Assembly: GCF_964204645.1 (NCBI RefSeq)
Contig: NC_134036.1
Coordinates: forward strand, 9,093,859-9,157,858
Length of the DNA stretch: 64,000 nt
Origin: Tubulanus polymorphus
Lineage: Eukaryota; Animalia; Nemertea
Direction: 5' to 3'
Positions 16,521 through 44,174 of this stretch are shown in pieces. The notes below the pieces were generated by a model, which had not been told where the DNA came from, did not search any database, and saw nothing but the letters and a program-made list of their open reading frames with translations. The stretch's first letter is position 1. Each line of letters starts with the position of its first letter. The translations under genes were made by a program, and so were the position numbers.

Positions 16521-17050
16521 CTCAAATGTTTTGTGACTTTCTCAAAATGTATCAAAAATTTAACTAATTTTTAGTTCATAAGTCCTCAAATATTCATAAA
16601 TGAACAGTTAAAAATTGTTGAAACATGTCGACTCTGCTGTAAAATCAACCTATTAACAGTCCGGAATTTGGGATAATATTGGGCTTTAGAGAACATAATG
16701 CCCTTAGGTCTTCACATTTACAGTAAAGATTACGTAAGTGATTCACGCGCAGCTCGCGATGGGCGCACAATAGAAATCTGAGCCGCGCGTTCTTTGAGTG
16801 TCACCAATTAAGAGGACCGCTATTGTGAAAATTGACTGCGGGAGGAATATTCCTCCCAATGTCAATCGATGGAAACTTGACCATGGGGTCCGATATTCAA
16901 AGAATTGACTTTGGGAGGAATATTCCTCCCAAGGTCAAACGAAGAGAATTTGACCTTCAGGTCTGATATTCAAAGTATCGACTTCGGGAGGAATGTTCCT
17001 CCGAATGACAAACGAAGGAAACTGGACCTGGTCTGTTATTCGAAATATAG
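16521..17050 (+). repeat. Left copy of a ~530-bp inverted repeat (DNA-transposon terminal-type sequence)
   Basis: Reverse complement of 60270-60800 at roughly 90% identity by eye. Contains three palindromic GGGAGGAATATTCCTCCC units (about 16840, 16913, 16986). Confidence 0.9.
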
Positions 17051-18260: not shown

Positions 18261-20012
18261 TGAGTGTTTAGCTCAATCTAAATGCGGATCAAAATCAGTT
18301 GACAAAGCCACCATAGTGTTTCCAATTGTGTTTCCAATTGCACTATATGTACAATATATGATAAAGCCTAAAGGATACTAAAACTTATGATTGAATATTC
18401 AATGATACCAAAATTTACTCATTTGGAGGGTTTTGATTTACTCTAAAAACAGCAGATATTCCCGCTGAAGTAGTGTACAAACATTCTACACGACATTTTT
18501 ACTTTACTCGTACATTCACGATGCTGTAATCACGAATAATTATGCAATCTATAATTTAAAATCCATAAGGATGAACATCAAAAAATAATATCACGGACAG
18601 ATTGGACTTATACACAGAATGATTAGGCTGATCCTGGATATCATTGACTATGTAAACATAATGCTATTCCGTTAAGCTACGTAAAACCAAAACTTTTAGA
18701 GCCTATTCAAAAATCCAAAAATTAATAAATACATTGAAATCATTCCAACAGGCACTGCCTTTATGTCATTCCGGGGCATTATTCTGCCCTCCATTATGCT
18801 TATCTCTCGATAGGGTAAAACTCACACTTTAACTGTGTTGGAGTGCAGTCTCCAGTGACGATCATTGTATTTTCGGTCAGCAATTGCTGTAGAACAGGAC
18901 ACTCCTAATTTACACTTTGTTCTACATGGTTCCATCGCGGAACCAAACGTGGTCACTGCGACATCTCATTCCCTGGCAATCAGCGGTGCAGTTGGTCCAG
19001 AGAGGGGACAGCGTGAAATAAGTTGATAGGCGACTGTTCTAGCCCTTAAGCTAGGGGATCGGCATTTCACTAGTAATTAATCTTCTCCAGCGCACTCGAT
19101 AGTGTCCCTGAAAGTAAAAAAAAAAGATAATAAGCTAACTGAATTCGCATAGAAGTTCAAACGATTCAGATATTATAATGAATGATCCTAACAATTACCT
19201 ATAATCTTAAGTAACAAATTTTGATAATGCTATTGAAAATTCAAATGCATTAAAGACGTACTTTCAAACTATCGATTAAGGAAACATTAGATTCGGCCTT
19301 AAGATAAAATGCAGTTTATAGACTACTTTACAAATACAAGAAATATTCATACTTTGACGATAGAGTGATTTTGAAATGCGAGAAATATGCATATTTGGGC
19401 CGATGTCAAGTCTACACATAACGCTCAGTCTACACTATACCCACACAGTATATCACAGTTTTTTCATAGTCAACTGGAATTCAGTACTATTGTATATCAC
19501 TCAGTCTATCGAGGTAAAAAACCACTAGGAAGCAGAATGCAGAAAAAGTGCAGTATGTGCAAATGTGCTAATTTATCTAAGGAAGTGTTTATTTTAATGT
19601 TTAATAAGCCTTATTCAGTACATTTCTTTTTGAATGACGTTATAAAAACGAGATGTATCGAAGAAGGCTATGGACAGATTATTACAACAAATGAATGGGC
19701 ATACAAGCGCTACGCATTTTACATTGATTCTGCAATTGAATAGTTCGGTAGAAATGTCATTTTTTCAAATTAGGGCGTCACCAAACTAGAGCTAAGTGAA
19801 GTGAACTAAAACTGGTGAATTATTGAATTAAAAGTGGTCCATCAATACTAACCTGTCAAAAATATATTTTGCTGCATACTAATCAAATGTCCCGAATTCA
19901 GGTTCAAAATCACGAAACGACGATCTGAAAGAGAATGTGTGCATGTATGAATGAATAGATCGATCTAGCGTAAAAGCTGACTTCCAAATAGATAGATATC
20001 TATCAGTTTGAA

Positions 20013-23000
20013 TCACCGCAATATACATGTACTTACTGAAGGATTCGGTAATTCGTGTTTTTCATTGATATCCTGTTCAATGCCTTCCTGTGCCTTCAAA
20101 AATGGAAGGTACCATACAGCGGAATCTGCTAGCTTGACTGTCTTAGTTTCAATGGTATCGAGGAAATCATTCCACCAGCCTTGTTTTTCCTGTGGTAAAA
20201 AGCTTTTCCATTTCTCCATATTCTTTTTCATATCCTTGATTTCGATGATTGAATAATTTAAATCGAGCACTGAAGGAGTACCAGTTGGTATACTTGTCAA
20301 TACACCGCCTTCCATGCAGTGCCATTCCTGAGTTGATGAACACCTATAGTACATGTTTATTTGGGATTGATCTTGGCTGTCCCTTCGAAAAATCCTTGGT
20401 TTCGAATGGTTCTTCATGTTGACGATATGTGGAGCAAGCCAAGATCGAATATCCAACAACCCCCCCAACTCGATACCATCGCACAGTTTGAGCAGGCCAG
20501 CCATATCGAATGCATCTTCTCTTCTCAACCTACCGGCATACACGCTAATTAGCTGGTCGATGTCTTCGTGCGTATGACCAACGAAGAGAAAACTCAACTG
20601 AATCTGAAATGATTGAAGTAGTTCGTCTTTAGAATTTTCGATCTCATAACCCACACAATAATACGGGTGCGATGTATGGTTCTGAATTCAAGTTATAAGT
20701 TCAAAAGATATACCACATGGAAATATATATGAGACATGATATCTATTGCAGTAGAAACTGCATAACTTGCCAATACATGTAGTTAGTTACAAGTTTGTCG
20801 ATATATGTAATCTCTACCGAACAGAGGTACAAATAAGTGAGTATTTGCGTTGCTTCTTAATTGAAAGCCTCCATTTATTAGTAGCCTGCAACTAGCAGTT
20901 TCCTCACCTCGTTAAATATTTTCTTCTCTACTAGAATTTGCAAGAGGGCTAAAACGTATTTGTTCTTATTTTCGCGGCCACAGTTGTCGGCTTGTAAATA
21001 CAAATGCGGTGGCAGTTGACCATTCTAAAAAAGTAAATAAATTAATTAAACATTAAATAAATGGATTTAACATTTCTTTTCACATTTGCTGACATAGAAA
21101 TGTGTACCGGTATTGAATTGTTTATATTCGTCTTACCTTAGATATACACCATAATGTCTTGAGGATAACATTCATCGTCATGTTGCTGTTGTGTGGATAA
21201 AGATGATAATCGACATACGACTGAGATATTTTATGACCATGACTTATCAAACTGTTATGTGTGTTTTTAGTAAGTTAGTAGCTGTCATGAACTGAAAAGA
21301 GAAATACCGGTAATTAGAAAATATAGTGCAAAAAGGCTATGATAAATAATGCAGATTAAATATGTTTTACAGTGGGTTTTTGTTTATTATCAAACAGTTC
21401 ATTTTCATTGTACGCCATTGGAGGTTAATTACTGGTGAGTTCTATAGAATGGTTTGTGTACCGGGTAATACAACTGGATTGGATTTATGGGAAATTTGCG
21501 ATAAATCGTAAGTTAAATGACAATAAGGTGGCCAGACGAGTTGCTCACCTTACCTTTTTCTCCGGCAAAATGTGGAAGAAATGACTTCGTTTGGTCCATA
21601 CCATCGACTATCAAACTAACGTAACGGTTCGGATTCGTCTGCGCTCTACTAACGCGTGCATAATAGGCGAGTCTCTCAGTCCTGATGCAGAGAAATACAT
21701 GATGGTTTTTTACGTAAGAACATTGAAATTATCAAACACTGAGATTGGAACAACATTCCAAGTGCGGTATGGAAATTCAAACAGCCTCCTTATTAGATAC
21801 GATGAAGATAGCATTTACATGTACTTACATTACTGTAGAAATGTGGCGTTGTTTTTCTGCCATTATTTCCTTGCGGGATATCGGGTTCTGCGTTGATTGA
21901 AGTAATCGTTGGATTCTCACACAATCGTCACATTTCGAGAATGTACTACCCTATAAACATTCAAGCATCATTCATATTAGAAAATGTCAGTATATTTTTG
22001 AAATATGTAGGCAAAGTGAAGCAATAAGTTACCTTCTTGATTTTGACAAATGAGAACAACTCTGACCAGATCCGATAAAATGTAGACTGACTGACATATC
22101 TATCATTGTTGTCGCTTTTTTCTGTTTTGTACTCCCGGTAGAGGTAAATTTTTCGGAATATCTGTGGAAGCCATTTTTCAGTCTTATCGGGAGCAGATTG
22201 TACTGTATTTTCCAAATAATTTGAGAGCCAAGAAGTTGCCTCAACGAATTCAGGGCTAGATTTTCTGATGGATATATTCTCCGGGCATTCTGACTTATCC
22301 TGTTTCGACTTGATTTTGTAAAGTGTCGATTTACTGATGCCATAGACATTTAACCAGCAGCCTTGGCAAACAGATCTACCCATGACAGTAAGGTTAATGC
22401 GCGATGTATTCTGCGTACATGTTTGTAGAGTATCCACGATAAACTGATGACGATCCGAAATATTGCGACACCAATATGATTCCCGCAGGTTCTTTATATC
22501 AGTCATGTGCAAAAAATCGGTACAACGTTTTTTACAGATCACATGAAGAGATTTCAATAGCGTTGTCGATGATGTTTTTTTGTTAAAAAGACTATCTTTG
22601 GGATATCCTGAAAAGAGATTGATGCATGAATAGAGATTATGGAATTGTGTTTTACCACGCGTTTCCAACGGATATTTCCAAAATCATTGTGATTTCTCTG
22701 TATTTGATTTTCAACTTCCATTTCAATATTACAGAAAATGAAATTCGTGAGAACATTCTTCTTAGAAACGAATAGAAATACATAAAGGAATTGGATATGC
22801 TTCTAGTTCCGTTTGATATCTGACCGTCAATAGCCGCAATTTCTGCCGTCAACGGATTTACTGGACTCCGCGTTGACAATATGAAAGCGTAGCTTATCGC
22901 CTTTAATTGACTGTATTAACTCTTATAATTATTGATCGTTTCTCAAATGGCATACTTATACACTTTAAAGGCTATCAGTGAATATTGGGGATTGTCATGT

Positions 23001-24842
23001 AGGCTACTGCTGTAACAGCAACAGAAGGAATGGGTTATTTGAAATTTTAATACAGGCACATTGTCCCTTTTAGCAGAACCTTGAGTGTAAATTTCTCGAC
23101 GTTTATGGCAGTGGCGCCCCCATTGGCGACGGTGAAATATTTGACTACCCGTTTGGTTCTGTTATATTTCGATGGGCTTCATCAGAAAATCCGTTGCAAT
23201 TATAAAGAGAAATGCTTCATCGGGTTAGTGGAAAATATTTTAAAACTATTGAAACCCAACTATGTAAACTGCATAAATTCCTAAATTTAAATTGCTTATT
23301 TTCTCCCCTATCATACTTACTGCTAGATTCGGCTATACGTGACTTTGAATGAGGAAGGATAAGCGAGCTCTCCAGGGGTTGTTGTTGACTATCTGTAAAA
23401 AGTGAAAATAAATTCGACATACTAAATTGCAAAAGACAACTGCATGTAATGTGATATCAATATTCGGTAAATACAAATGAAACAAAATTGTTAATTGCAC
23501 TCTTTTGCATTCATACTTCATCCTTATTAGATAAGATTTTTAATATTCTGTTTAATACCATATTGATGTTCTCACTTTGCCGTTGGTAGGAAAACCAGAA
23601 AAACCCTTGAAAAAAATATATTTTACCTGAACTGGTCGCATGTTCTTCAAATTCTATATCTTCACTGCTGTCCATTTCACAACTCGCATTGCTTGGTGAC
23701 TCTAAAAGTTAATTGGTAGAAGTGTTCTTTAATTAATATTTAGATTATTGTCTGGGGAGTGAAAATCATAATACATATATACCTGAACTGATGCAAAATT
23801 CTCCAAAAACACTTTCTTCGATTTGACCATGGGGTAAAACTACGAGTATATTTTAGGAACTTCGATCTAGATGTAACAGAAATTATCATTTTGGGAATAT
23901 CACAATATCTACCTGCTCCGGCGCTTTCCTCAAAAACACTTTCATCTAGGATATCATTCGCCTCAATCGGATGAGAGGGTAAAACTACAAGTAGATCCAT
24001 GAAAAGAGTTGTTTTACATCATGGGTTCATAATCATAATAACATTATTTGGAAAAATTCTTCAATATAATTACCCAAATTGAGGACGCTTTCCTCAAAAA
24101 CACTATTATCTTCGTTCCCTCCACTCAGATTGCTGGGTAAAACTAAAAGTATATTTCAGGAAAGGTCGTTTACATACAGTAAGTGCAGGATCTTGATGCA
24201 ACAGAAATTTCTGGGAATATCAGAATATCTACCTGTACTGATTATGCTTTCTTCAAAAACACTTTCATCTAGGACATTTTTCCCCTCACTCAGGTTGCCG
24301 GGTAGAACTACAAGTACATTTTCGCTAAAGTCATTTACAGGTATCTTGATATAAAATGAATGTGAATTATCCTATTAGGAATATCAGAATATCTACCTGC
24401 ACTAATGACACTTTCCTCAAAAACACTTTCATTAAGGATATCTTTCGATTCACACGGATTGCCGGGTAAAGCTACAAGTAGAATCATGAAAATCAAATCA
24501 TTTTATGGTATGAGTGCATCACAGTTATGTTAATATACATCATTTATGGAAAATTCCTCAGAAAATCTACCTGAACTGAAGACGCTTTCCTCAAAAACAC
24601 TTTCTTCAACGGCGCTGTTTGTTTCATTACTCAGAATGGCGGTTAAACCTGAGACGATTGATAACATGCGTTTAAAGTAGCTATCGATACATCAATCAAT
24701 ACAGCGGATATTACTCCTAAAACGACAATTTGTAGATGCATAGAAATAGTAATAAGTAGGTCATGATAGGTACCTGGAGTATGGTCTGATACACTCAGTC
24801 TGGATTTCTTAGGAGTACTAGCAGAAAACATGCTTGTGTCAG
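20013..24842 (-). pseudogene. Intron-rich Sola1-like (DUF7869-type) DDD transposase gene with at least one frameshift
   Basis: Spliced exons give VCQGCWLNVYGISKST, WLP, YVSQSTFYRIW, FSKCDDC, LIVDGMDQ (about 21600), YPHNSN, LYLQADNCGRENKN (about 20985) and LSFLFVGHTHEDIDQ (about 20570). Junctions are GT-AG and there is a frameshift near 21250. Confidence 0.8.
23627..24648 (-). repeat. Tandem exon+intron modules (~165-bp period) encoding acidic ESVFEES repeats
   Basis: Seven AG/GT-bounded phase-1 exons: 24648-24571, 24471-24397, 24307-24233, 24142-24074, 23984-23913, 23839-23783, 23701-23627. Confidence 0.75.
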
Positions 24843-28300: not shown

Positions 28301-30989
28301 AATTTGAAACGTAAGCAAAAGTAGAATTACTGCATTGACGGTGTTGAGATTTTCTGAACGTGCGTTACTACAGCAAATCAAATTTAGATCAACACACTTA
28401 GACATTTTTTTGAATACTACTGTTTTAGAATTAGTTTTTGTCGGGTCTGTTCCGACCTGAGAAATGAAAAATACGACCACACTTTATTAAACCTTGATCG
28501 AAAACATATTTTGATACCGAAGTATGTGGACTCCTTATATTTCTTGAGTTTATATTTCGCTGAGTTTATCAAAACCAATGTTGTAGTTGTGGAGATGTAT
28601 CTGTTGGTGATGAATAAGTTTAGACAAGATGGGATTCGATTTAAGTATTGGTTTAGACAAGTCTTAGGAAAATGAATTCTAGCTGTGAAAAAAAACGCGA
28701 ACTGGATATTGTTCTTTTTATCTGAAATACATAATGGACATTATCACATCTCTCTCAATCAACTCTATAAGATAATTCTTCCGTTTACATATGATCACTG
28801 AGGCATAAAGGAATAATTACTGTTACTGTTATATCGTTCATATTCAATCTATATTCATGAAAGTAATAATATGTAACAAATTACTAAATCATACACACAT
28901 TTTAAATTTGACGATATACTCAAAAGCAAAAAAAACTGCTTACTTTCGCTATTAGACATTTCATTATTTTTATTATTAGCGCTCCGTGAATTCTAGCGAT
29001 GGAGGCAAAACGTTTCATTATGGCACAATATTTTAATATAGCGATCGAAAAAATTATATGCGAAAATACTGTACTAAAAGCGACCATATATTACGGACCG
29101 GGCCCTGAAACTTCACAGACAGATAGAAGGGGGTCTAATCTAAATATGCAATGCTTAAAATTGGACCATAGACCCCCGCGAGCAGAATCCGACCCTTAGA
29201 CCCGCGGCCATATCTGTATAGTCGAGACCTTCCATGTGACTACTTTTTGGAGGTTGGCAAGACCTTTTCTAGCAAGCGTTACTTCTCAGATACTTAGAAG
29301 GGGCAAGTTATACAACTATAGAAATCTTACTCGCGGGTTCCTGTGGATGTGAGCACTATCCAAATTGGAATAGGTTCGTTATACTAAATACGTCAGTCAC
29401 TCTATAGTATTCACCAGTGAATTCAAATTGATGGAACCTCGGAGTAATCAGACTGATTCAGTCCGATTAATCTAAGATGGAACAATTCCTTTCCTCGAGG
29501 ATGTTATGATACATATAATTATTTGTACATCGTTCACGGTTTATCCACTTAAGTTTGACACATTTCGTACGCGCTCTGAATCTGTTTTCAAGAACTTTTT
29601 GATAAAGAATCAAACATCTTATTTTATCCAAACTGCAAACATCCCCCAGACTTTCATATGGTGTAGTTAGAAGAATGATGAAATATCTTTGACTGTACGA
29701 GGTCAATCTGATCGTAGACGTATAAATTAGTTAATGTCCATGATCTGATTCAAAAGCCCGTCGTCAATTCATGGGCGATAGCAGGCCATTTTAAGCGGTG
29801 AGCGGTGCAGCTGAAACGTTGTAGCTGATACATATTCCAACTTAGCAATTATGGGACTCGATGATTAACGTATTTTGGTTTTTGATCTATTTCTAATACG
29901 GCTGTGCGTCAGACAAGATATTCAAGTGATTAATGCAATTGCTACAAACAGGAAATTTCTGTGTCATTTAAGCTCCCTATCATAAATATTTTATTAAAAG
30001 AACAAAGCAAAGTAATACGCATTTTAAGTTAAAATCCGTTCGAACAATTTCCACCAAATTATACATAGAGTATCAGTAAATTGTAATTACGAGTACAGTG
30101 TTAATGTTCAAAATGTTATCAAAGGAAATCTATCGAAACTGTGGTAGACGCTTCCTGATCGCTTTTCTGACTCGCCGACGAATCACCAAATTCGATCAAG
30201 GCATTTTGATTATTTAATCAATTAGTAGACAAACAAATGCAAAATGAAATTTTCTATTGAGATTAGGACGATCCGACTATCAAAACTAGATACGACATAA
30301 TGATAGATGTGTTGTATTGCTGCAATAGTGGTAGTTTAGCTCAAACTAAGGAATTTCTTGATTTAAAAGACTAAATTATCCTAGGGAAGATTCTCCCGGC
30401 TGGACTTGATACATTGTTGTATCCCCTCGCATGGGTACACTAATATTTATACATATGGATATAAGATATTAACATATTTTAAGCCGCGAACGATGAATTC
30501 ACCAAGTGCTTTAAAACGCACTGAGAAATAACTTCATTTTACCGGTAAAAATGTCCCGTCAATGAATCTAATTAATCAGTGTATTTAATTGAATTTCAAA
30601 TGAAATCGGTGATTCGACGATCTGGTAATTCGGCGAAGTTCAAACTAAACAACCCTGCCTGGTACGTATGTGCCAGATGAACATTATTGGAGCCTCGGAA
30701 ACCTGTGCACGCATACGAACTATTCCCATCATCCCAGCAACCCAGGGAACTTTTACGAAAACAGATTTAGATATCAGGTCAGCTATACAACATAGTAACG
30801 GGCCATATGGTCTGACTAATCCCTGTGAAAACTACAGGCGAGACTAAAGTACACATACACACGTGTTGCTTCATTTGACAGGTCTCAGCCATCTCAAAGC
30901 TACGCGAACAATGTTGTTTATTACTGAGAAAGAAACCAAATTCAAAAACAAAAAAGGCATAACTCGAACTCCACTAAAAAGTTTTCATC

Positions 30990-31582
30990 TGTTGTGGGGG
31001 TCCTCTGTCCCAGTGTCCGGGTGACGTGTGTTGACCACCTGCGTTGTTTGCGTTTCACCAGCGTAGTTCCTTGGGGTTCTTCTCATATTAACTACAACTA
31101 GCTTCTTCTATCGATCCAGATCTTTATTCTTATACTCTCTTCTTACAATCTTCCTAGCACGTCCCCTCTAAACCACTAGCTCAACCGACCCAGCTCTACC
31201 GACCAAGCTTTCGACCCCACTGCATTAAAACCCTCCCTTTTTATACTTATTCTTCCTTCGCTCGTGACGTATATTTCCACACCGCTTGGCCTCATCGCCA
31301 GAGACGTCTTATTCTATTACTACAGTCCTACTGGCCATGTAAATCATTTCTACGTGTGTTATACGTCACGAGCGCTAAATTTATAACTCAACTTTCCAGA
31401 GCTCAAGGCTGCTGCTATAACAAGCTTTCCCACGTAGACACCCACGTCACTCTCACCTATCTTCTATGCTTCTCTCTTATGTGTGACGTAAGTATTCACG
31501 TAAGTCGCCTGCTAACCGCAACTACTGCCTTGAACTCCGGCTTATTTCCCACTGTCTAAATAGGTAATTTATTACTCCAATA
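30990..31582 (-). repeat. 3' LTR
   Basis: Direct repeat of 41723-42315. Minus-strand TATAAAAA at 31238-31245 and AATAAA at 31123-31128. Confidence 0.95.
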
Positions 31583-31596
31583 CCATCCCCCTTTCC
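31583..31596 (-). promoter_or_regulatory. Polypurine tract
   Basis: GGAAAGGGGGATGG on the minus strand, directly abutting the 3' LTR. Confidence 0.9.
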
Positions 31597-32020
31597 AGAC
31601 GATTGGACCCCCAATCGCCAAAAAAATACTGAAGCCCGTTTGCACTTCCAAAGATTTTTTTTTAAGAGCCGTAGCTAGCAATAGTGCAAAATCAGTACTC
31701 CTTACTTCCATAAACAACTTTTTCTTTTTTGTTTTTCTTTTTTAACAACTTTCACCCCTTGAACTTCACCGTAAGGCAATAAAAATGGTGCTTTATGATA
31801 AATGATACAACAATCTTGCAACTGACGCACATAAATTTTCAACATCTGGATGGTAGAGAGAGAAAAAAAAACCCATTATTTTTTCCTGACCAGCAACAAT
31901 AACAGTACACCTGGCCAAAAAGTCACCCTTGATACTGAGTAAAATCCCCATCTCTGAAACATTCTACTTCCATCCGCCATAAAGACTAAACCCTCATTAC
32001 CATCCGGATTATCATTCACA

Positions 32021-33473
32021 ATGGACCCGATAGAGTTTTTCGGTAAGCAACTTATTTTGAATACTTATAAACTAACACACCAACCATTTTGTACAGTTTT
32101 ATCATTACAAGCGATAATACATTATGCGCTACTCTTGCACTTTGTTATTTTAAACGGTCACATCGCCCCTGATAAGATCTATTACCCCATGTGCAATTTC
32201 TAAAAATGTGAACAATATAATACCAGAAAAACCTTGAATTTTAACAATGTTAGTCATGTAACTATAATTACTAATTGTAAAAACGTTAATTGCACTTCAG
32301 TCCATTTCATTACCGTTGTATTATATTATGCAACAATACTTTTATATATACAATCCATTTTTTTTTTCTTTCATTGTTTTTTTTTTTTTTTTAATCAGCA
32401 CTACCAAGGTACTGTACGGCAACGTACGAATACCGTGCTTCAAAGCATGAAGTATATAAAATTAGAAACCTCAAAATTAACAACATATATATCTCATCCT
32501 GTCATATTTTGTTTTTCATATCAGCCTCACTGGTCCTACACATGCTGTATGGCTTTATTCTAGCACAGCCCGGTAAGACTTCTTAATTCATTTTATGTAC
32601 CAAAAAAAACAATTTATAACTGCTTTTTCTAATATACTTTTGCAACGCAGGCAACCGACAACAATTATTAAACATAATTCGGGCTGCCACCGACGACCTA
32701 CGCGCCGCGTTTTCAGGTATACATTATATATATCCCTCTTTACAACCATAGTTCATACGTATTTATTTATTCATTGCGTATACCATTAGTTATATGTTCC
32801 AATGCTAATAATTATACTATGGCAACGCCACGAACACAATTCCACATGTTACCTCTATATATATTGTCTATTTACGCAGGGCTCCCAGTTCCATCCACCC
32901 CATCCCCAACACGAGGGCAACATACGGCGCGGCAAAGGGGCACGGGAAGGGGGCAACCAAGCGGTGGCACCCTCCGCATGCATCCCTATTCCCGTCGTAC
33001 TAACGCGCCCACAGACCAGAGCGTGGACCCCTCGCTCCCCGGTCTGGGGCCACAACCTCCACCCTATAACCGCATGTCCCCATCCCCAGTACCTCTTCTC
33101 CCAACCCAACTCCTTTTCTCGACCTTTCTCAGCACCCCCTCCTATCACTTGGAGTTCCCGATTCCCCTCCTGTACCTGATTCCCCCCTCTTACCTGGTCC
33201 CCATTCCCGATATCCGATCCTTCACATCCCTGATACCCCTGCAAGCCCTTCTGCAAGCAGCACCTCCAGCTCCCTGCCGTCGCTGGCTAGCTACTTCCCA
33301 CCTCCTTCACCTACAAATTCCAGTGGCAGCGAACCCGGTAAGAATTTTATAAAATATACAAGCAAATATAACAAATTCGTATTTCAGTCCGAGAAATTAC
33401 AATATGAACCATATGGGAATTTAAAAAAAACTCATGCAAATACAAATCCTATATTTCAGAACGAGAAGAATGA
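32021..33473 (+). CDS. Putative spliced antisense accessory gene of the gypsy element (Pro/Ser-rich protein, ~200 aa)
   Basis: Exons 32021-32042 (ATG..G|GTAAGC), 32525-32572 (CAG|..G|GTAAGA), 32651-32716, 32880-33337 (G|GTAAGA) and 33460-33473 (TGA). All junctions are phase 1. A 1-nt slip in a C-run near 33085 is needed to reach the last donor in phase. Confidence 0.65.
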
Positions 33474-34034
33474 CCAGATCTATTTACACTCACTGGAGTT
33501 CGTTTCTTTTTATACCACATTTAGTATGATAATACAAATTTAGTTAGATACAAAACCACCAACTTCTCTTCCCCTTTTTTTATTATGTTCCTCTCCCTTT
33601 CCATACACTGACCGCCTCGATCTTTAACCGTTTAAGATGGTTTGTCCAACCTGTCCCGACTCCAATCAACGACGTAAATTAATACTGATGCCAAGTACAT
33701 CATTTAGTTGATTATCGTGTGCCCAGCACATGTTGGCAACAGACAGCTTCAACAATTAATGAATAATTCCATAATAATTTTCTAAGTGCATTTTATAAAG
33801 ATGAGCCGAAATTTATGCAAAAATGGATATACTGATCAGATACATCCGAATCGCCGAGATGTCAGCCGCTAGTCCCCACCCATTGCCTCAGAAAGCAAAT
33901 TCATCCGTAGTCTAGGCAGGGATAACATGTACTGCTATTTGTGGCGAAGAGTCGTTATAGACAGGCTGGCCGCCATATCTCTATGGGAGGTCGTCACTCA
34001 TTAAGACTGCATCCCGCTGATGCACCATCCAAAA

Positions 34035-36406
34035 TTAAGTAAAAATTTCCCCACTACACAATCTCCTTAGCGGCTTATTGAAAAGCCGACTGGCGTAAAT
34101 TGTTTTAATGAAGCAGTTCGTGCAAGGGGTATTTTTATCATATGTAACATTGATTGCAACCAACGGTCCGTATGTTTTGATCTTAATCTCTGCCAACGGC
34201 TGGACGGCCTTGACTTCCTCCCATAAATGAGGAGATACGAACCCTAAATGTAAAACAGCCGACGCCCCATCATGATTATAAACTTCGGCTAAGACCTCTG
34301 CAGACAGCCTAGGAGAGGAACATGACGCCAATGATATCTGCCACCGACGTCTACTCATAAACCGCCACCCGTCAGTAAAAAAATACCGCAGTGTCGAGTA
34401 TACGACCATACCTACAACTGCCCATTCAATTATAGCCTCCCAATCTAACAAGGTTTCCGATGCCTTCCTAATCGCAGACAAGTCAATATCCAACTGTTCG
34501 TGAATTATGTCCAAATTCCCTGTCTCTACACTTTTAACCATTGTTAAAGCGGACCCTGCCGCCGCCCATGCCTTATATCGTTTGCATAAAACCGCCGATA
34601 CTATTATTGCCACAATTACTAACGAAATCAGAATATAACCACCGATTTTCAAAGAACTATGTGTCCCCCTAATTTCTGACCGTAAATAATCGGACCTACT
34701 TGTATACGCTATCTTGTCACTGCTTATAGCCTGCGCCAATTTTTTAAAATCAGCTTCCTTAGCGTTTTCAGCCCGTATCACATTATCCCATTCATGTCCT
34801 TCTATATTAAAATCAGGCAGTGTGATACGCGGAATTTTAGAATATAATACCTCTGTTTGCATATTATCAATATCATCCTCTTTACCCAAAAGTAATGCCG
34901 CCGGTATGTTAACGGGATATAATCGAGTTATTCTATCATGACCTTTTTCACAATTTGTTAAAGTCGGCGAAAGCGTAAAGTATTTCGAATTCAACCCACA
35001 ATGACATTGCAAGGTGACAACACAAAAATCACAGACCGGAACCCTAATTGGTGGATCCAGTCCACATTGGGAAATCCAATCATCTCGCTTGTCGTGAATG
35101 GATATCAAATATTTATTGGTTGTCAACAGGACCGCCTGAGACAGAGGCGCCACGGAAGTATATGTCAGATCACACTGCCCAATTAGATCCTTAGGATTAT
35201 CAAAGAAAAGTGCAGACGCGCATGATTTTTGTGTTCGAGTATAGATAGGTAATCCATCTGCACAATTCTGTATATAACGTCCTTGGCAAATCGAATAAGT
35301 GGCTTCATCAATCAACACGTAAGTTTGCAAATTCTTACTAACGCCAAAGAAGCGTGGGAGGTTAATTATTTTTGTATACACCGTAGCGGTTGCATTAACC
35401 GGAAGGTGAAAAGATAATATATTATACAAACGAAAATGCGTATTTTTTGCTTGTATTGGGATCTGCATATGAACCACTATATATTCACGAGTCCTGACAG
35501 TAAACGTTCGCGCGTGCGAATAATAATAACTCGGGGTTTGATGTGCCAGCTCAAACATGGGGTAAAAATTCTTCAATGTAACGCGAATTTTTGATAAGAT
35601 TTCCTGGAGACTTGTTACCGGAATTAACTCTACAGGTAGTCTATTTGACAGTAAAACGTTAGTGGAGCGCAACCACGCGGCCATGTGGCTGCTGATAGCC
35701 TCAATAACATCCCCATAATTAATGGAATACCGCACTACGTATGATAGTGCATGCACCCTTGCCTGTAAACGAGCCTGATTCATAGTATTATTTACAACGA
35801 ATTCCGAAAGTTTTGACATATAATCTCTGTTTTGTCGTACTAGAGACTTAACTTAAATCTAGAATCTGTTACGTTGGCAAAGCTAGTTAACCGTTCTTGT
35901 AACTGGACAATAGCTTTATGATCTAATTTTTGTAATGCATCAAACTTATTCATATGTCTTTCCACTATTTGTAACTGCTCAGTAGTGGCGACCCCAAAAA
36001 TCAAACTGGCGACATCTCCGATGAATGATAGCGGTGTTCGTTTCATACGGCCTTCTCTTCTTGTACTCGGAATTTCAACAGGTAATAATGATTCAATCAT
36101 ACGCCTGGAACTGTTAAATTTTTGATCAGCTCGGATTTTACGCAAACGCATTAGGCGAAACATTTTCTCTATTTGTCGGCATTCGGCATTAGGCATTCCA
36201 CACGTCATATTAGGAATTGTCATTGAAAACCGGGAAACATCTACTAAAGGAATCATAACACTATGTTCCCATTTTGTTGCTGCTACATTTATCTCGTCAA
36301 CTGGCTGGAATACTACTCCAGCCCCCATCCGTAGCTCTGCATCCCATGCAGCCATTGGTCCTATCCACGACCAAATCATAACGATATGAACTATACTCCG
36401 AACCAT
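34035..36406 (-). pseudogene. env: Envelope glycoprotein (class I, F-type/errantivirus-like), frameshifted by a 5-bp duplication
   Basis: Signal peptide MVRSIVHIVMIWSWIGPMAA, furin site RMKR followed by fusion peptide TPLSFIGDVASLIFGVAT, heptad region, Cys-rich block and TM GGYILISLVIVAIIVSAVLC. The two ORFs join when one ACTTA copy (35846-35855) is removed. Confidence 0.9.
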
Positions 36407-36546
36407 GGTTCCTAAAACAACATTTTAAATCATAACTTCTTGATTTCCTAACAATTTCTTAAAACACAGCAACTTTATACTCATACTCATTTTTCCTATT
36501 ATCCTTAATTAATTTCGCAACAACTGTTGGGTGCGTGGCAAATATC

Positions 36547-39500
36547 CTATGCACGTCGTTTCCGTCTTTTCTTGGCTGTTTGATGATATGCCGTCAAGAT
36601 CGACCTATCCAAGAAATTCTCCTCCGGTTCCCAAGTCTTATCCGCATAACCCTCCCAGGCGACATAATAATACAACCTGCCTCCCCGTCTTCTATGTTTG
36701 AGTATTCGAGACACAGTGTATATCGACTCGTCTTTCCCGTCAATATTTTCGCGACCCTTCGATAACGTCATGTCCCTCTGCGTCAAAGTAGGAGGTTCAA
36801 TTGCGGGCGTCATGCCGATTTTGACATGGCGACTCTTATGGGGCAAAACGATTTCATCCATGGCGAGGTTCCCTGGTAAGTCATCTAATTTTTCAATAGT
36901 CTGCGGTAAGTCGTAAGTAGGCGGTTTTTTAGATTCATAAACCGGACGCAACCTATTTACATGAACTAATGTTTTAACCTTTCGATTATCATCCGTTCTC
37001 AATCTGTAATTAACTTCTCCTATTTTTTCAATAATTTCATATGGGCCCAGCCAAAATGAATGTAATTTCTTTGATGCCCCAGTAGGCAAGTGTGGGTAAT
37101 AAAGAAAAACCTTACTCCCCACTTCAAACTGAATATCTTTAGCATTTTTATCGTACTGCTGCTTCATTTTTATTTTGCTCAGTTCCCGATTCTTACGAAC
37201 TATGTCATGTACTATATCCATCTTCTTAATTAAGTGTTGAAAATAGGCCACATGAGACCCATATTCATTTTTTGGAGCTGATATGGCTAGTTCCATGGGC
37301 AATTTAGGCATCCGCCCAAAAACAATTTCAAAAGGCGTGAATGACGTCGAATTGATATTATTTGAGGAATTCATTGCGAATACCGCAGATTGCAGATATA
37401 AGTCCCACTTTCCCGGGCTTTGTCCATCTAATAACTTAGCTATTGATTTGTTTAAATGTCTATGTTGTACTTCTAAAGCACCATTCGCCTGTGGATGATA
37501 TGAGGACGTAGTTTTTGTTCTACCCCCCAAGAGGATGGCCGTTCGTTGAAAGACTTTTGAGATAAAGTTTGACCCATTGTCGGTAAGTATAGTAGAAAAC
37601 ATCCCATATCTCAAAATGATACCATCCACCAACCTTTCGGCGACCTCTTCTGCCGATGCCGTCTTAAGCGGAAATGCCTCCATATATGATGAAAAAGTTT
37701 CAATACATGTCAACACATATTTATGCCCCTTGTCAGACACCGGAAAGGGACCCACCATATCCATAGCAAATTTATGGAAAATTGGCTCCACCCGTACCGT
37801 TTGCATTGGAACCTTAGTAGCCTCTTTTGCAGACAACCCTTTCCGTTGACAGACATTACATCGTAAGCAGAAATCCTTTACATCGTTAAACATACCATTC
37901 CAATAATACCTATTTTTCAGACGCATATACGTTGACTTGATGCCACTGTGTCCTCCAAAAACCTCATGTGTTTCTTGCAGGATTTGTAAGCGAAGTTGTT
38001 TTGGTATCACATAGCAAGGAGAGAAGTGAGCAGATTGGCGGCGATTTAAATGTTGCAAGTATTGAAGACTATCCTTGTTGTCCAGAATATACCTTTCGTG
38101 CGACAAGATTATTCGTCGTGCCAAACGATCATTTTTTGGTAATGATCCGTCTAATAGGTAATCAATGATAGGTCGTAACTCATTATCTTTACGTTGTTCC
38201 ATAGGCAAATTCACCAAGATATCATCGTTACCTGTGTCAACAGCCACTATTTCCGGATACCTTAATCTAGACAAGAAATCCGCATCTGCATGTTGTACTC
38301 CTGCCCGATACTCAACGTCATATTGGTATCCTTGTAGGAAGATGCACCACCGTTGTAGCCGACCTGAGGCGAGACCATCGACCTCCATCTTTTTTAACCA
38401 CAACAGTGCTTTATGATCTGTGACCACCGTAAAAGGATTTCCATACAGGTATACTTTATAATACTTAATGGCTGAAATGAGCGCCAGACACTCCCGCTCA
38501 CTAGCGGAATATGCTTGTTCTTGTTTTGTTAGCGCTCGTCCACCGTATGCAATTACGTGTTCTTGACCGTCGTCTCCTTCCTGTACAAGACAATATCCCA
38601 TCGCAAAATTTGATGCGTCGCAGTGAACCTTGAACTTGCGTTTCAGAGAAGGATATGCTAACACGGGTGCTGTTATAAGTGCCTGTTTCAAGTCATCAAA
38701 CGCTTTCTGACAATCGTCAGACCATAGAAATGGTATACCCTTTATCGTCAATAGTGTCAATGGTCGTGCCCGCCCCGAAAAGTTCTTAATGAATTTTCTA
38801 TAGAAATTAGCAGCCCCTAGGAAAGACCGAACTTGAGTTTGATTTGTAGGCACAGGGCAGTTTCGAATCACATTTACTTTCTCGGGATTAGTTCTAATGC
38901 CATCCCCGTCTAAATAGAAACCCAAAAACTTACAGTTTGGTCGAGCAATAAAACATTTGCTGGGTTTAAGTGTCAACCCCGCCACCCGTAATCTTTCAAA
39001 AAGTTGGCGTAAATGTTGTAAGTGATCCTCCCAACACGTAGAAAATACTAAAAGGTCATCTAAATAAACCAAAACAGAGTCCCCTAATGAATGTAAGAGG
39101 CGAGCCATAATGGATTGAAAAATACTAGGGGCCGATGCTATGCCCATGGGTAATCTAGTAAATTGGTAATGACCAGTAGGCGTTACGAACGCCGTTTTGT
39201 GACGAGACTCTTGTGAAATCGGGATCTGAAAATAACCACTTCTTAAATCTAGAGAAGAAAATATTTTTGGCCTAGCGGTGCCACACATAGTTAAGGTGTC
39301 AAAGATATGAGGTATTGGATGTAATGTTTGCAATTTTAATACCTTATTTAATCGCCTAAAATCAATACACAATCGATATGACCCATCTGGTTTTGGTACC
39401 AAAAGTGCGGGAGAACTATAATTTGAATTTGAATCTTCAATAACGCCTTGCTTTTTAAGTTCATCAATCTGCTTATCTAAAATATCCCTCAACGCTAATG

Positions 39501-40614
39501 GAACCCGATATGGTCGTGACCGAATAGGCACCTCATTTTCAGTCTCAATATTGCATTCAACCCCCTTTGCGGTTCCCAACTCCAATATCCCTTCTGCAAA
39601 CCTATCTCTGTATTCTTCCAATAATGATTTTAAATCAGCTTTTTGCTGTACCGATATGTCTCCCGTTTCCACACTATCTAATATATCGTTTTGATTTTCA
39701 GGTTGAGGCGTGGAAATACCTTCACTATCAATTGTCATATATGACCCGTCTGCGATAGGAGCATCTAAATCGATGAGAGTAACATCTCCTAAAATGGCAC
39801 CCTTTTTTAACCGTTTTGAATAATTTGATGGATTACACACTTGCACAGGTAATACCCCACTTTTAATATTAGATATACTAGCCGCACCCATAATACCATA
39901 TTTATCCCATAATCTAGCGGACTGTTGAACAAAACCTACACCGTCCTTTCTTCCCGTCCCCTTCATTTTTGCTTTTATCTGCACCTGTGTACCAGGCGGA
40001 ATTGTGACCGTATCGTTAGCTACTATACAAATTTGTAATTGTACCTTTGCCCCCTCGTGAAGAGGTATTGAGTGACCGGATGACAGATGTAGGAGCTTTC
40101 TCGGAGTGTCAATAACCACACCCTGACTGTTAATGAAATCCATGCCTAGAATACATGGGTGAGCCAATTTCCTTAATATCAGAAATTCTTGCTTAACAAC
40201 CCTTGATTCCATTTTAAGATTTAATTTAACAATACCGAATATTTCTAATGTACCCCCATCAGCTACCGTAGCATATTTATAACCGTCATATTCTAACGGC
40301 GTTACTAATACCGTGGATCTTAATTTCAAAAAGTATTCATATGATATGACACTTCGAGTTGCTCCTGTATCAATCAAAACATCCATCCGTTCATCAAAAA
40401 TAACACAATTTAAGGACAGTGGGCGCTCAGAGCATAATACTTTTGGTTTTTCTTTCAAAATTTTCTTCTTTGTCAAGTTTTGTTTGTGAGATTTCAATTT
40501 TGTCTGTGAGCGCCCACTATCCCCCGTTATCCCCGATCCTACCTCATACAATACTTGGGCATTCTCTGTTTGTATAGCTCTGGACAGCTGCCCTAAGCCA
40601 TCCTTGCTACAGCC
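36547..40614 (-). CDS. pol: Pol polyprotein: protease, dUTPase-like spacer, RT, RNase H, integrase, chromodomain
   Basis: Motifs LIDTGA; YLDD; HCDAS; HHCC zinc-binding (H..GGH..CNVC); MDMVGP/TDNGSNF/GALE (D,D35E); WLGPY; YTVSRILKHR..YYVAWEGYADKTWEPEEN. The frame is open and continuous with gag after one TAG. Confidence 0.97.
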   Translation of the reverse strand, partial: GCSKDGLGQLSRAIQTENAQVLYEVGSGITGDSGRSQTKLKSHKQNLTKKKILKEKPKVLCSERPLSLNCVIFDERMDVLIDTGATRSVISYEYFLKLRSTVLVTPLEYDGYKYATVADGGTLEIFGIVKLNLKMESRVVKQEFLILRKLAHPCILGMDFINSQGVVIDTPRKLLHLSSGHSIPLHEGAKVQLQICIVANDTVTIPPGTQVQIKAKMKGTGRKDGVGFVQQSARLWDKYGIMGAASISNIKSGVLPVQVCNPSNYSKRLKKGAILGDVTLIDLDAPIADGSYMTIDSEGISTPQPENQNDILDSVETGDISVQQKADLKSLLEEYRDRFAEGILELGTAKGVECNIETENEVPIRSRPYRVPLALRDILDKQIDELKKQGVIEDSNSNYSSPALLVPKPDGSYRLCIDFRRLNKVLKLQTLHPIPHIFDTLTMCGTARPKIFSSLDLRSGYFQIPISQESRHKTAFVTPTGHYQFTRLPMGIASAPSIFQSIMARLLHSLGDSVLVYLDDLLVFSTCWEDHLQHLRQLFERLRVAGLTLKPSKCFIARPNCKFLGFYLDGDGIRTNPEKVNVIRNCPVPTNQTQVRSFLGAANFYRKFIKNFSGRARPLTLLTIKGIPFLWSDDCQKAFDDLKQALITAPVLAYPSLKRKFKVHCDASNFAMGYCLVQEGDDGQEHVIAYGGRALTKQEQAYSASERECLALISAIKYYKVYLYGNPFTVVTDHKALLWLKKMEVDGLASGRLQRWCIFLQGYQYDVEYRAGVQHADADFLSRLRYPEIVAVDTGNDDILVNLPMEQRKDNELRPIIDYLLDGSLPKNDRLARRIILSHERYILDNKDSLQYLQHLNRRQSAHFSPCYVIPKQLRLQILQETHEVFGGHSGIKSTYMRLKNRYYWNGMFNDVKDFCLRCNVCQRKGLSAKEATKVPMQTVRVEPIFHKFAMDMVGPFPVSDKGHKYVLTCIETFSSYMEAFPLKTASAEEVAERLVDGIILRYGMFSTILTDNGSNFISKVFQRTAILLGGRTKTTSSYHPQANGALEVQHRHLNKSIAKLLDGQSPGKWDLYLQSAVFAMNSSNNINSTSFTPFEIVFGRMPKLPMELAISAPKNEYGSHVAYFQHLIKKMDIVHDIVRKNRELSKIKMKQQYDKNAKDIQFEVGSKVFLYYPHLPTGASKKLHSFWLGPYEIIEKIGEVNYRLRTDDNRKVKTLVHVNRLRPVYESKKPPTYDLPQTIEKLDDLPGNLAMDEIVLPHKSRHVKIGMTPAIEPPTLTQRDMTLSKGRENIDGKDESIYTVSRILKHRRRGGRLYYYVAWEGYADKTWEPEENFLDRSILTAYHQTAKKRRKRRA

Positions 40615-41625
40615 CTAATTAGTCCGCTGTTGTCGATTCGTATTCCGACGGCAATATCTGCTAATATGTCCAGGTAAACCACATTGATAACAAATGATGT
40701 TTCTATTTTCCGTTGCGAAGGTAGATTTCGCTGGCCCCCTGCAATTTCTAGCCATATGTCCAATTATGTTACACCTGTAACATCGACCTCTAAACGTAGG
40801 GTAACGAAATCTATTGTTTGTAGCTCCATCTCGCGCGTACGTAATCGCTTCAAACGGTCGTTGAATTCCCGTAAGAGCCCGACTTTCCTGTGCCATCGTC
40901 TCCTCCTTTCGTTGTTTAATTTCTAGCTGATTTATTCTTGTTTTCAGTTCGTCCCACTCCGCGTTGGCTGTCTCGACTTGATGAACACCAGGGCCATCTA
41001 TTTTCAACATCTGGACTACGTTACTAGCCATTTTGATGGCTTTGTCCAGATCCTCTGGCATTTGCGTCCAAACGATTTTGCGAATGTCCGCGGAGAGACC
41101 GTCAATAAACGTACTCAACGTCACATGCGCGGGTAATTCCAATTCATTCGCTCTCCGTTTAACATCGTCTGCGAAATTGTCTACTGTTTGGCCTGAAACC
41201 ATGCGCATGTGTTTCAGCTGGTGAGTTTTTAGCATTTTTCGATCCGGGTTATTATATCGCTGATTAAACGCTTGTAATAAATCATTCCACACGCGTTTCT
41301 TATCTTTATCGACACCTAAATACCAAGAGCGAGCTTCTCCCCTCAAAAACAAGGGAAAGCTCCTCAGTATCTGACGGTCACTCCATGCCATGAGTTTTAC
41401 GTATTGTAAAAATGCGTCTAACCATGGTTCCGGATCATTTGTTCCGTCAAAATGTTCTGGTTTCAGCCCGCTTACGCCTTTCGGGACAATGATTATTTCA
41501 TCGTCGCTATCATTGTCGTCGTCTTGTCCTACAGCCGGATTGGCTGGTCCCACGGCCACTTGCTGTCCCGCGTTTGCCATCCCCAACAGTTGTGCTTTTC
41601 GTTTAACGGGTTGGTTATAAAACAT
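40615..41625 (-). CDS. gag: Gag with capsid domain and two CCHC zinc knuckles
   Basis: PEHFDGTNDPEPWL..LRGEARSWY capsid motif; knuckles CYRCNIIGHMARNC and CYQCGLPGHISRYC. Confidence 0.95.
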   Translation of the reverse strand: MFYNQPVKRKAQLLGMANAGQQVAVGPANPAVGQDDDNDSDDEIIIVPKGVSGLKPEHFDGTNDPEPWLDAFLQYVKLMAWSDRQILRSFPLFLRGEARSWYLGVDKDKKRVWNDLLQAFNQRYNNPDRKMLKTHQLKHMRMVSGQTVDNFADDVKRRANELELPAHVTLSTFIDGLSADIRKIVWTQMPEDLDKAIKMASNVVQMLKIDGPGVHQVETANAEWDELKTRINQLEIKQRKEETMAQESRALTGIQRPFEAITYARDGATNNRFRYPTFRGRCYRCNIIGHMARNCRGPAKSTFATENRNIICYQCGLPGHISRYCRRNTNRQQRTN

Positions 41626-41704
41626 AAACCAGAGTTTTTATAAATCGATTCAAAGTTTTGTATAATGTCACTCACCACTAGCTTGGCTGCGAGACCGGAA
41701 TTCT

Positions 41705-41722: not shown

Positions 41723-42315
41723 TGTTGTGGGGGTCCTCTGTCCCAGTGTCCGGGTGACGTGTGTTGACCACCTGCGTTGTTTGCGTTTCACCAGCGTAGT
41801 TCCTTGGGGTTCTTCTCATATTAACTACAACTAGCTTCTTCTATCGATCCAGATCTTTATTCTTATACTCTCTTCTTACAATCTTCCTAGCACGTCCCCT
41901 CTAAACCACTAGCTCAACCGACCCAGCTCTACCGACCAAGCTTTCGACCCCACTGCATTAAAACCCTCCCTTTTTATACTTATTCTTCCTTCGCTCGTGA
42001 CGTATATTTCCACACCGCTTGGCCTCATCGCCAGAGACGTCTTATTCTATTACTACAGTCCTACTGGCCATGTAAATCATTTCTACGTGTGTTATACGTC
42101 ACGAGCGCTAAATTTATAACTCAACTTTCCAGAGCTCAAGGCTGCTGCTATAACAAGCTTTCCCACGTAGACACCCACGTCACTCTCACCTATCTTCTAT
42201 GCTTCTCTCTTATGTGTGACGTAAGTATTCACGTAAGTCGCCTGCTAACCGCAACTACTGCCTTGAACTCCGGCTTATTTCCCACTGTCTAAATAGGTAA
42301 TTTATTACTCCAATA
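41723..42315 (-). repeat. 5' LTR
   Basis: 593-bp direct repeat of 30990-31582; minus-strand termini TATTG...CAACA. Confidence 0.95.
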
Positions 42316-44174
42316 CATCAACGAATCAATAAACTGTCGAACTCGCATTTCATAATCGAATGCTGCCCTTTTTTCTTGCCGGGATTTAGAATCATTTTCT
42401 GATCGGGATTGTTATAAAAGAATCTTAAATTTTTTTCAAATTGAAATTCAGAGCTGCTGAAGATACACCGTGACACCAGTTCCATCCAGTTCGAGATTAA
42501 ATATTACTTTTGAGAATTTGATTCAATAAATTGAAAGTTCCTGAAGGAACCAGAGCCTGCACGCACAAATTGATATAATATCTGCCACACATTGAAAGTG
42601 AATTGAAGAAGAGTTGTAAGATTGACATGAATACACTCTGACTATTATTCATTATTCATTCGATCATCGGTTTATCGGTGTATGACATTAGCATATATCT
42701 ACGATGCATGCGATTGATCTAGTCACCTTTGAGCGGATTGAAAATCAAGTAACATTTTTTCAAATCCGCCATTAACTGTAGTTTATAAATGAGATTGGCC
42801 TCGGACACAGAACGCTATTCTAAAAAATGAGGACCAATCATCACTCCGAAAACGATAGACTAGATATCATTTGAAAAACTAGTTTTAAGTCCTTGTTAAT
42901 ACTTAACACCAGATAATAAGAAACCATCCTGTTATGGGTTTAGGGCAGGAGTTAACGATAAATGAGATAAACATAAACGGATATAATTCAAGGTCCAAAT
43001 AGATCTAGATATAACAGTTGATTATGAGGAAAAAAGCCAAATTTGCGGTTACGCAGTTTTGAACAGCTTACATGTATGTTCAAATGTTTGCGTCTATTAA
43101 AAATATCGATACGGGAAAAATCAGTATCTATCTTTAAATCATTCATATATATATATAGTCAAATGTACGGTTCGTTGATAGATAACACAGTAATGCTTAT
43201 GTTAGTTTTGAAGCCGGTTAAAATAAATAAATACAAAATATAAATTTGCTATTTAGATAGAAGGATGATCCGTATTCTAAAACTAGATCCGCGCCAGGCC
43301 CCGTTGGACTTAAAATTTGATACAGTTTTGTACCATCATAGACCGTCGCATAGCCACACTTATATTTATACATTGGGTATGAAATATTAACACGAATAAC
43401 ATTTCTAAACCGTGAACGATTTCCCCAACGTGCTTTTTAAACGCATTTAGTAACAAGTTTGTTTCACTATAGCGGTAAAAATGTTAACAAATTGCATTAA
43501 TCAATGTATCCTACTGAATTTCAACTGAATTCGGCGATTTGGTGATTCGGAGATATTCAAACACCCGGTTACGTTCGTCGAGTCCGCCTTCTGGAGATAA
43601 CGACTTTTCTATAGACCACATGCCATAGGTTTATAGTGTGCATCTATTTTTAAAAAAAGACTGTCTTTGAACTCGACTCGTTTAAGTTCAAGTTAATTTA
43701 TTCAATGGAAAAGAACTCAAAACCTTGAAGGCCGATGAAGTAAGCACATGAGGAGAGCGCATGGCTATGTTTTTGGAGCAAGTGTTGTGCAAGTGATTCG
43801 AAGGCAGTATTAGATTCTAAATTTCCACGTGTTTAATCTGACCAAAATATTGATTAAAGTTTCATAACAACGGCTACGGCGCGTGTCTCCTTCATTTCAT
43901 GTTTTCGATTATATCAATTTGGAGTGTTGCATAAGTGACGGAATGAAATGAAATCTGAATGAATTAATTTTGTCCTAAACTTTTGAAACAGTTTTGACTA
44001 CTCCAGAGAATGTTTGAATGTCTATGCTCTGAAGATAGGTTTTGTGATTTTGTGAGTTATGAATATAGTTGCGCACAAAAAACAACCGTAATATAACCAG
44101 AGAGATGCACTATACTAAAGATTAAAGAAATAAAATCAGCCTTGTCGATGATAAAGATTTATGGCGGTGATCCT

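Follow-up and report, generated by a model that had tools for sequence, protein, structure and literature searches.

A predicted spliced gene antisense to gag-pol-env in an enveloped Ty3/gypsy element of the nemertean Tubulanus polymorphus

Introduction

Extra genes antisense to the genomic RNA are already known in LTR elements. HBZ, APH-2 and APH-4 are described as spliced, driven from the 3' LTR and nuclear (PMC10186651). Antisense extra open reading frames between pol and the 3' LTR have also been described in plant and fungal gypsy elements, with their function stated to be unknown (PMC7264820). Those of plant Ty3/gypsy elements, called aORF-3R, are reported from maize Grande (gene23), rice RIRE2 and Retand (the TRP28 ORFs) (PMC7264820, PMC11963269), and the GENE23 protein of Grande is given as nuclear (PMC7264820). 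In animals, a clade of errantiviruses with an F-type env and a chromodomain has been described from Cnidaria, Mollusca and Annelida (Chary and Hayashi, PMC13524379).

Enveloped invertebrate gypsy elements are usually regarded as simple three-gene viruses, and a selected antisense gene in one of them would be an accessory gene in the style of the complex retroviruses. A gene of this kind had been proposed in a preliminary description of 64,000 nucleotides of Tubulanus polymorphus DNA (NC_134036.1, positions 9,093,859 to 9,157,858), and that whole stretch, called the window here, is the subject of this study. The splice model, a silent bias found in the predicted frame only, and at least two diverged groups of copies support the conclusion that an intron-bearing, protein-coding antisense gene belongs to the element. 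Its product may also be a regulator, as originally proposed. Given the genes listed above, the idea is less new than was first implied.

Results

The element that carries the gene

The minus strand of the window holds an 11.3-kb Ty3/gypsy element with gag, pol with a chromodomain, an F-type env and paired LTRs. Its features are as follows.

30990..31588, minus strand: 3' LTR (594 nt identical to the other LTR)
31589..31599, minus strand: polypurine tract (sequence adjoining the 3' LTR)
33635..33945, no strand assigned: separate dispersed repeat within the element, on the env side of the antisense gene (read depth)
34035..36424, minus strand: env, F type, two frames (Baculo_F E 0.0016, below the Pfam cut-off)
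36547..40614, minus strand: pol with protease, RT, RNase H, integrase and chromodomain (Pfam)
40615..41637, minus strand: gag (two CCHC knuckles)
41723..42319, minus strand: 5' LTR (repeat match)

The LTR repeats (30990-31583 and 41723-42316) are 594 nt long and 100% identical, and a primer-binding-like site that starts with TGG follows the 5' LTR on the minus strand. The LTRs, primer-binding site, polypurine tract and pol order of protease, RT, RNase H and integrase are those of Ty3/gypsy elements (Metaviridae), and the chromodomain after the integrase matches PF00385 (E 3.8e-09). Relatives in RT-RNase H are at most 52% identical, and among the most similar of them, those that are named come from bivalves. 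The target-site duplication (30985-30989 and 42320-42324) is imperfect, with 4 of 5 bases shared despite the identical LTRs, and the U3 ends of the two LTRs differ by one base. Both gag and pol lie in one frame and are parted by a single in-frame TAG (window 40612-40620), which suggests stop-codon read-through; the same gag-TAG-pol layout occurs in the related loci L003, L029, L045 and L109.

The third sense open reading frame encodes an F-type envelope, as in errantiviruses in the wide sense (PMC13524379), which are defined by a third sense frame for an envelope of F or gB type. It occupies two frames, 35840-36424 and 34035-35852, and a single relative of 838 aa, P0121, matches both of them, with 47% identity to the second and a visible likeness to the first, so that env is read as a single gene, which this copy carries in broken form with the break near 35845. 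At its early end at 34035, 27 of 27 reads of the raw DNA run X5 differ from the window within the stop codon. The related loci L090 and L109 pass the Baculo_F cut-off (E 1.5e-11 and 9e-13). Additionally, env and P0121 share a second hydrophobic stretch (window 35270-35690; alignment residues about 590-720). Past the transmembrane helix the two also have in common a well-conserved domain of some 100 residues, which is unusually long for an envelope tail.

Read depth over the repeat at 33635-33945 rises up to about 5-fold, with loose ends on its two sides in 107 and 119 X5 reads. A search of Rfam gave nothing credible, including for this repeat. Elsewhere in the window the following features were found.

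4382-6112, minus strand: CACTA-type transposase ORF (PF02992; Pfam)
6984-9608: 2.6-kb element with 234-nt inverted arms (repeat search)
16521-17048 and 60272-60800: distant inverted repeat pair (repeat search)
17611-18310: 69-nt tandem array (repeat search)

A five-exon model opposite to gag, pol and env

The gap from env to the 3' LTR is 2446 nt long and contains a predicted five-exon gene on the plus strand, opposite to gag-pol-env.

31894..32020, plus strand: possible spliced 5' untranslated part of exon 1 (inferred from the acceptor before 31894)
32021..32042, plus strand: predicted coding part of exon 1, start ATG at 32021, donor 32043 (splice sites, blind model)
32525..32572, plus strand: predicted exon 2, 48 nt, phase 1 to 1, hydrophobic helix (splice sites, silent differences)
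32651..32716, plus strand: predicted exon 3, 66 nt, phase 1 to 1, predicted amphipathic helix (splice sites, silent differences)
32880..33337, plus strand: predicted exon 4, basic Pro/Gly-rich part followed by a Pro/Ser-rich tail (splice sites)
33460..33473, plus strand: predicted exon 5, last codons and stop (blind model; acceptor rank 11 of 95)

Recomputation confirmed the exon coordinates of the preliminary description, its GT..AG introns (482, 78, 163 and 122 nt) and the first three phase-1 junctions. The contrast it had drawn between higher-GC exons and AT-rich introns was also recovered, with GC of 0.46-0.61 in the exons (0.36 in the short last one) against 0.25-0.31 in the introns. Splice sites were scored with generic frequency matrices from general knowledge. 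The donors that had been called strong are ranks 1-4 among the 90 plus-strand GT sites of the gap, and GC drops by 0.20-0.40 at each of them, compared with a 90th percentile of 0.20 over all GT sites. The pyrimidine-tract acceptors fared less well: they rank 8, 5, 2 and 11 among 95 AG sites, which taken on its own does not exceed chance (p 0.31), and there is no GC step at acceptor 32651. As described before, branch-like CTAAC/CTAAT sequences precede two acceptors, the optional one at 32097 by 25 nt and 32651 by 22 nt. That optional acceptor runs into a stop unless the RNA is spliced further, and the other one, 32399, keeps the frame open but through AT-rich sequence. The minus strand of the gap also carries a strong donor, at 33193.

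Upstream of the coding part, the best plus-strand acceptor of the gap precedes 31894 (score 9.1), and no ATG occurs from there to 32021. The 3' LTR has plus-strand donors at 31488 and 31500 (scores 7.3 and 8.3). This suggests an RNA that would start in the LTR and carry a spliced leader, its non-coding first exon closing at 31487 or 31499. The LTR also holds 10 ACGT cores of the TGACGT and CACGT types (31024-31501) compared with 2.8 expected, a count reached in 1 of 5000 resamples; 8 of the 10 lie in the U3 part, and sequence outside the element has 1.4 cores per 600 nt.

A blind search of the gap by dynamic programming on splice scores and open frame, with no composition term, returned the ATG at 32021 and all four donors with a score of 24.1, compared with 13.3 on the minus strand. 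The blind model picks the optional acceptor 32399 and adds one intron within exon 4. A score of 24.1 was reached by 5 of 6000 block shuffles. In the rest of the window 3 of 90 tiles of equal length also reached it, and these may contain host or transposon genes. Multi-exon models scoring as high as the antisense gene lie on the minus strand at 19569-23200 and 47293-53300, near ORFs that match DUF7869 and a C2H2 finger and are probably DNA-transposon or host genes.

Copies in sequencing runs and selection on the exons

Copies of the region were compared in X1-X4, four runs of one study that each contain half or more of the region's words, and in X5, which was added by species label; X6-X10 share almost no words with the region and were left out. 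The runs compared are not recorded as RNA and behave as DNA, with introns covered as evenly as exons; none of the 6 listed read joints lies at a predicted junction, and none is listed on 32490-32910 in the four runs compared there. The differences listed are 40 of 70 for 32490-32910 (four runs) and 40 of 322 for the wider region.

Among the listed differences in exons 2 and 3, 9 of 11 are silent (3 of 3 in exon 2 and 6 of 8 in exon 3) compared with 4.1 expected if every change fell at random on a matching base within these exons (p ~0.002). Adding the three positions of an indel pair gives 10 of 14 silent in the predicted frame (p 0.006), whereas the other five frames give 1-5 of 14 (p 0.41-0.99) and no bias. 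The 8 listed indel rows on 32490-32910 comprise 5 in intron 2 and 3 that make up this pair, a -1/+1 change within three bases of exon 3 that keeps the frame and is carried by 11 and 11 X5 reads. Because differences in exons 2 and 3 are mostly silent and net indels occur only in the intron, these exons are very likely coding and under purifying selection. GT and AG are unchanged in every listed difference. In the 28 nt ahead of acceptor 32880, nine listed changes are packed together without making the acceptor unusable, and the change at its position -3 keeps a pyrimidine.

Exons 2 and 3 are kept in the main and diverged copies of X1, X2, X4 and X5, as judged from partial lists and short contigs. 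One X1 contig, 84% identical (14 differences in 90 nt), matches only 32512-32601, which is exon 2 with its splice sites, and the match of another X1 contig ends 9 nt past donor 32043. The likeness of the more distant copies ends near exon borders. A contig of X3 lies on 32525-32574 only, with loose ends where exon 2 begins and directly past its donor and with unrelated flanks; its source may be a relative without introns, a host gene or another element.

Constraint on exon 4 looks weak. Comparison with other copies had been put forward as a check on the gene, and the silent bias of exons 2 and 3 and the intact GT and AG agree with it, but only 2 of 7 listed differences in exon 4 are silent. 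A one-base indel at 33182 is present in 18 of 44 X5 reads, and any compensation for it would lie among 17 rows beyond those listed. By the silent bias in exons 2 and 3, set against the pattern of exon 4, the first ~45 residues are the conserved core, and the tail may be loose.

The reading frame of exon 4 was revised in part. It had been thought to end at QPPPYN in this copy, but with the window letters read unchanged the spliced frame stays open for 225 aa through a phase-0 last junction to a stop at 33541-33543. A one-base indel had been suspected near 33085, and a check of reads bears this out: at the run 33083-33087, 29 of 30 X5 reads depart from the window by one base, as do the two X1 contigs at this place, a close one and one with 38 differences in 301 nt. 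Since 29 of 30 X5 reads differ there, the frame used by most copies after this point is the Pro/Ser-rich one. Reading the break as X gives a protein of 202 aa that ends in EREE, the ending originally proposed. Little can be made of the missing AATAAA downstream, since at 33576-33581 most copies are longer than the window by about 49 bases.

The predicted protein

Residues 3-22 of the predicted protein are hydrophobic (mean Kyte-Doolittle value 1.66 for residues 3-21), and residues 24-45 have a high helical moment. Residues 1-45 may resemble Dpy-30/RIIa dimerisation helices. On a rough insertion scale residues 3-21 score 3.2, compared with 3.6 for the N-terminal segment of env and at least 7.7 for every 19-mer of pol; the env transmembrane helix, at -2.6, is far stronger than this helix, which has a His at its center. 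Residues 47-113 are rich in Pro, Arg and Gly with a net charge of +6. Pro and Ser make up half of the tail, whose net charge is -6. Three short motifs occur in exon 4.

32975-32989, plus strand: RMHPY motif (exon 4)
33056-33067, plus strand: PPPY motif (exon 4)
33211-33222, plus strand: YPIL motif (exon 4 tail, downstream of the variable indel 33182)

PPxY and YPxL motifs recruit Nedd4-type ligases and ALIX in retrovirus biology. The Gag of the element lacks PPxY, PTAP and YPxL, but this is not special because six related Gags lack them too. RMHPY matches the PY-NLS consensus R/H/K-x2-5-PY (PMC2408616). The earlier reading of a PY-NLS and a PPPY ligand is correct in that the sequence has both motifs, but shuffles produce either one at rates of 8-27%. 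In shuffles of residues 47-202, RMHPY, PPPY and YPIL each appear in about one fifth to one quarter, PPPY and YPIL together in 4%, and all three in 1%; a PY motif, which here follows RQRGTGRG, appears in 19-27% of shuffles of this low-complexity sequence.

Pfam searches with single exons gave nothing above the cut-off, including bZIP, TRP28 and SMC families, and DUF6789 (E 0.06-0.09) remained below it. Exon 4 had no credible homologue among 5.8 billion proteins or in the ESM Atlas, and against 1.84 billion representatives only one unrelated repeat protein was returned. This sole phmmer match, P0151, was rejected as an Ig-like/LRR repeat protein matched through Pro/Thr bias.

Related loci

Alignment of the integrase located 143 related loci (79 + 64) at 28-42% identity, a distance too great for recognition of the antisense gene. 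The first 112 residues matched nothing in these distant loci (best E 1.4), and the antisense gene had no match in the rest of the window. Six of the 143 loci have the same type of env, only three of them have more than 700 bases after env, and all three are among 10 related loci whose 3' regions were scanned. No antisense model with both a low p and GC-rich exons was found in these 10 regions, where the best p was 0.013, uncorrected. Env queries returned no relative in genome, viral or metagenome contigs, integrase alignment none in viral contigs, and a phage collection and an exact-pattern search of viral contigs no match. As far as these searches reach, the antisense gene seems confined to this element lineage.

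A minus-strand ORF of L034 and L043 was considered as an analogue and dropped, as the overlapping sense frame looked more protein-like by eye. L034 (2729-3424) and L035 (4835-5530) carry a GDSL-lipase-like ORF between pol and the next long ORF (Pfam on L034), and L034 (7853-8332) and L043 (7690-7992) share a further sense ORF of no known family.

Discussion

The data presented here make it highly probable, on sequence grounds, that the predicted spliced antisense coding gene is real. Introns antisense to the genomic RNA escape its splicing and are copied at every round of reverse transcription. In the mechanism proposed here, a promoter within or beside the 3' LTR would drive the plus-strand RNA, whose first exon may be non-coding and end at 31487 or 31499. 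The first 45 residues would form two helices for partner binding or dimerisation, the basic stretch and RMHPY would lead to import of the protein through Transportin, the Pro/Ser tail would act as a disordered effector arm, and the target would be the ACGT-rich U3 or the host silencing machinery. Taken as a whole, an accessory protein, probably nuclear, that acts on the element's own expression is put forward tentatively. A nuclear regulator is placed first because the characterized antisense proteins in this position are nuclear and because of the basic PY stretch and the disordered tail. However, residues 3-22 are as hydrophobic as the N-terminal segment of env, which fits membrane targeting better. 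The nuclear role is one that we infer with less than even confidence, and its main rival is a membrane or budding adaptor.

That rival accepts the gene but makes its product a small membrane-anchored adaptor for budding or trafficking of enveloped particles, acting in trans to Gag. A signal-anchor helix at the N terminus would be followed by an amphipathic helix in the cytosol and by a tail that binds Nedd4-type ligases and ALIX through PPxY and YPxL motifs. The hydrophobicity of residues 3-21 and the presence of PPPY and YPIL beside a Gag that lacks late motifs favor it, but a His sits in the middle of the helix, which falls far short of the env transmembrane helix, six related Gags do without late motifs as well, YPIL lies downstream of the variable indel 33182, and the motifs were chosen after the fact; we consider such an adaptor a serious rival but unlikely. 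The gene might instead be a piece of a host gene or another element, captured with its introns and held under mild selection, with an anti-silencing role or another role outside LTR transcription. The introns do resemble ordinary host introns, distant relatives lack the gene, which was therefore gained in this lineage, and the X3 contig covers only 32525-32574 between unrelated flanks. However, neither the three protein collections searched with exon 4 nor the rest of the window held a credible source, although the spliced N-terminal part was compared with the 143 loci only, and capture is judged a distinctly unlikely origin.

Two further readings do without a working protein or without a gene. 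The working product could be the spliced antisense RNA, either as a source of dsRNA or piRNA or through transcriptional interference that damps the element, with the peptide secondary. Non-coding antisense RNAs are known for micropia, TART and IAP, and roles of RNA and protein may coexist (PMC7264820). Most of the coding length is low in complexity and weakly constrained, as such a role would allow, but the silent bias shows up in the protein frame of exons 2 and 3 and in no other, which an RNA-only role does not predict, and we regard this reading as improbable. It is just as improbable that there is no gene and that a long 3' untranslated region with AT- and GC-rich patches contains splice-like sites by chance. 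The acceptors alone are at chance level, the model was found after looking, and the difference lists are partial; against this, the model score recurred in few shuffles, the silent bias in a pre-set frame is an independent test, and indels avoid exons 2 and 3. The strongest form of the nuclear-regulator reading holds that an invertebrate errantivirus independently turned into a complex retrovirus, with a multiply spliced regulator of a new family, driven from the 3' LTR, that would act on the bZIP-site-rich U3 as a counterpart of HBZ. This form is doubtful.

If the gene is what it appears to be, genes of this kind are invisible to ORF-based annotation, and therefore many more of them may lie in the long "non-coding" 3' regions of animal errantiviruses. 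It also offers a small, testable gene for the question of what antisense genes of LTR elements do, which is given as unknown in PMC7264820, and a case for the study of how introns and new genes originate within a genome that replicates through RNA.

Comparison with known systems

No printed antisense gene in an animal gypsy element was found in the literature searched, which covered few subscription journals and no Repbase, and terms for such a gene brought up no animal case in the available text of PMC4402516, PMC8220671, PMC6431247, PMC12440569, PMC12477816 and PMC10186651. The element itself agrees with the errantivirus clade of PMC13524379 in its gag-pol-env order, F-type env and chromodomain after the integrase, a membership judged by these features. 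The pipeline of that study annotated gag, pol and env, and the words "antisense", "accessory" and "opposite strand" do not occur in its main text, supplements aside.

With HBZ of HTLV-1 and APH-2/3/4 of HTLV-2/3/4, as they are described, the predicted gene shares an antisense, spliced structure and a place between env and the 3' LTR, and the predicted protein of ~200 residues, the candidate LTR donors and the ACGT-rich U3 add to the likeness. Unlike these genes, it belongs to Metaviridae and not Retroviridae, has four predicted coding introns and no bZIP or Pfam domain, and is accompanied by no Tax-like sense gene that could be seen; neither homology to HBZ/APH nor a bZIP was found with single exons in Pfam or with exon 4 in the protein searches. 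In the manner of aORF-3R, as far as these are described, it is an extra antisense gene in the long region before the 3' LTR that is common to copies of the family: the predicted coding region lies antisense between pol and the 3' LTR, and copies in X1, X2, X4 and X5 point to conservation in most copies. It differs from the plant genes in its animal host, its position downstream of a true env, its predicted multi-exon structure and its lack of a TRP28 or SMC domain, and the word "intron" is absent from the available text of the Retand survey (PMC11963269), in contrast to the multi-exon model here. The brtn gene of Boty from Botrytis cinerea (PMC7264820, PMC8365987) is likewise described as an additional antisense gene, in a Ty3/gypsy element outside plants, but Boty is fungal and has no env. 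Set beside these systems, the predicted gene stands out by its orphan protein, its four predicted coding introns, its location behind a true env, and the direct evidence for selection on it.
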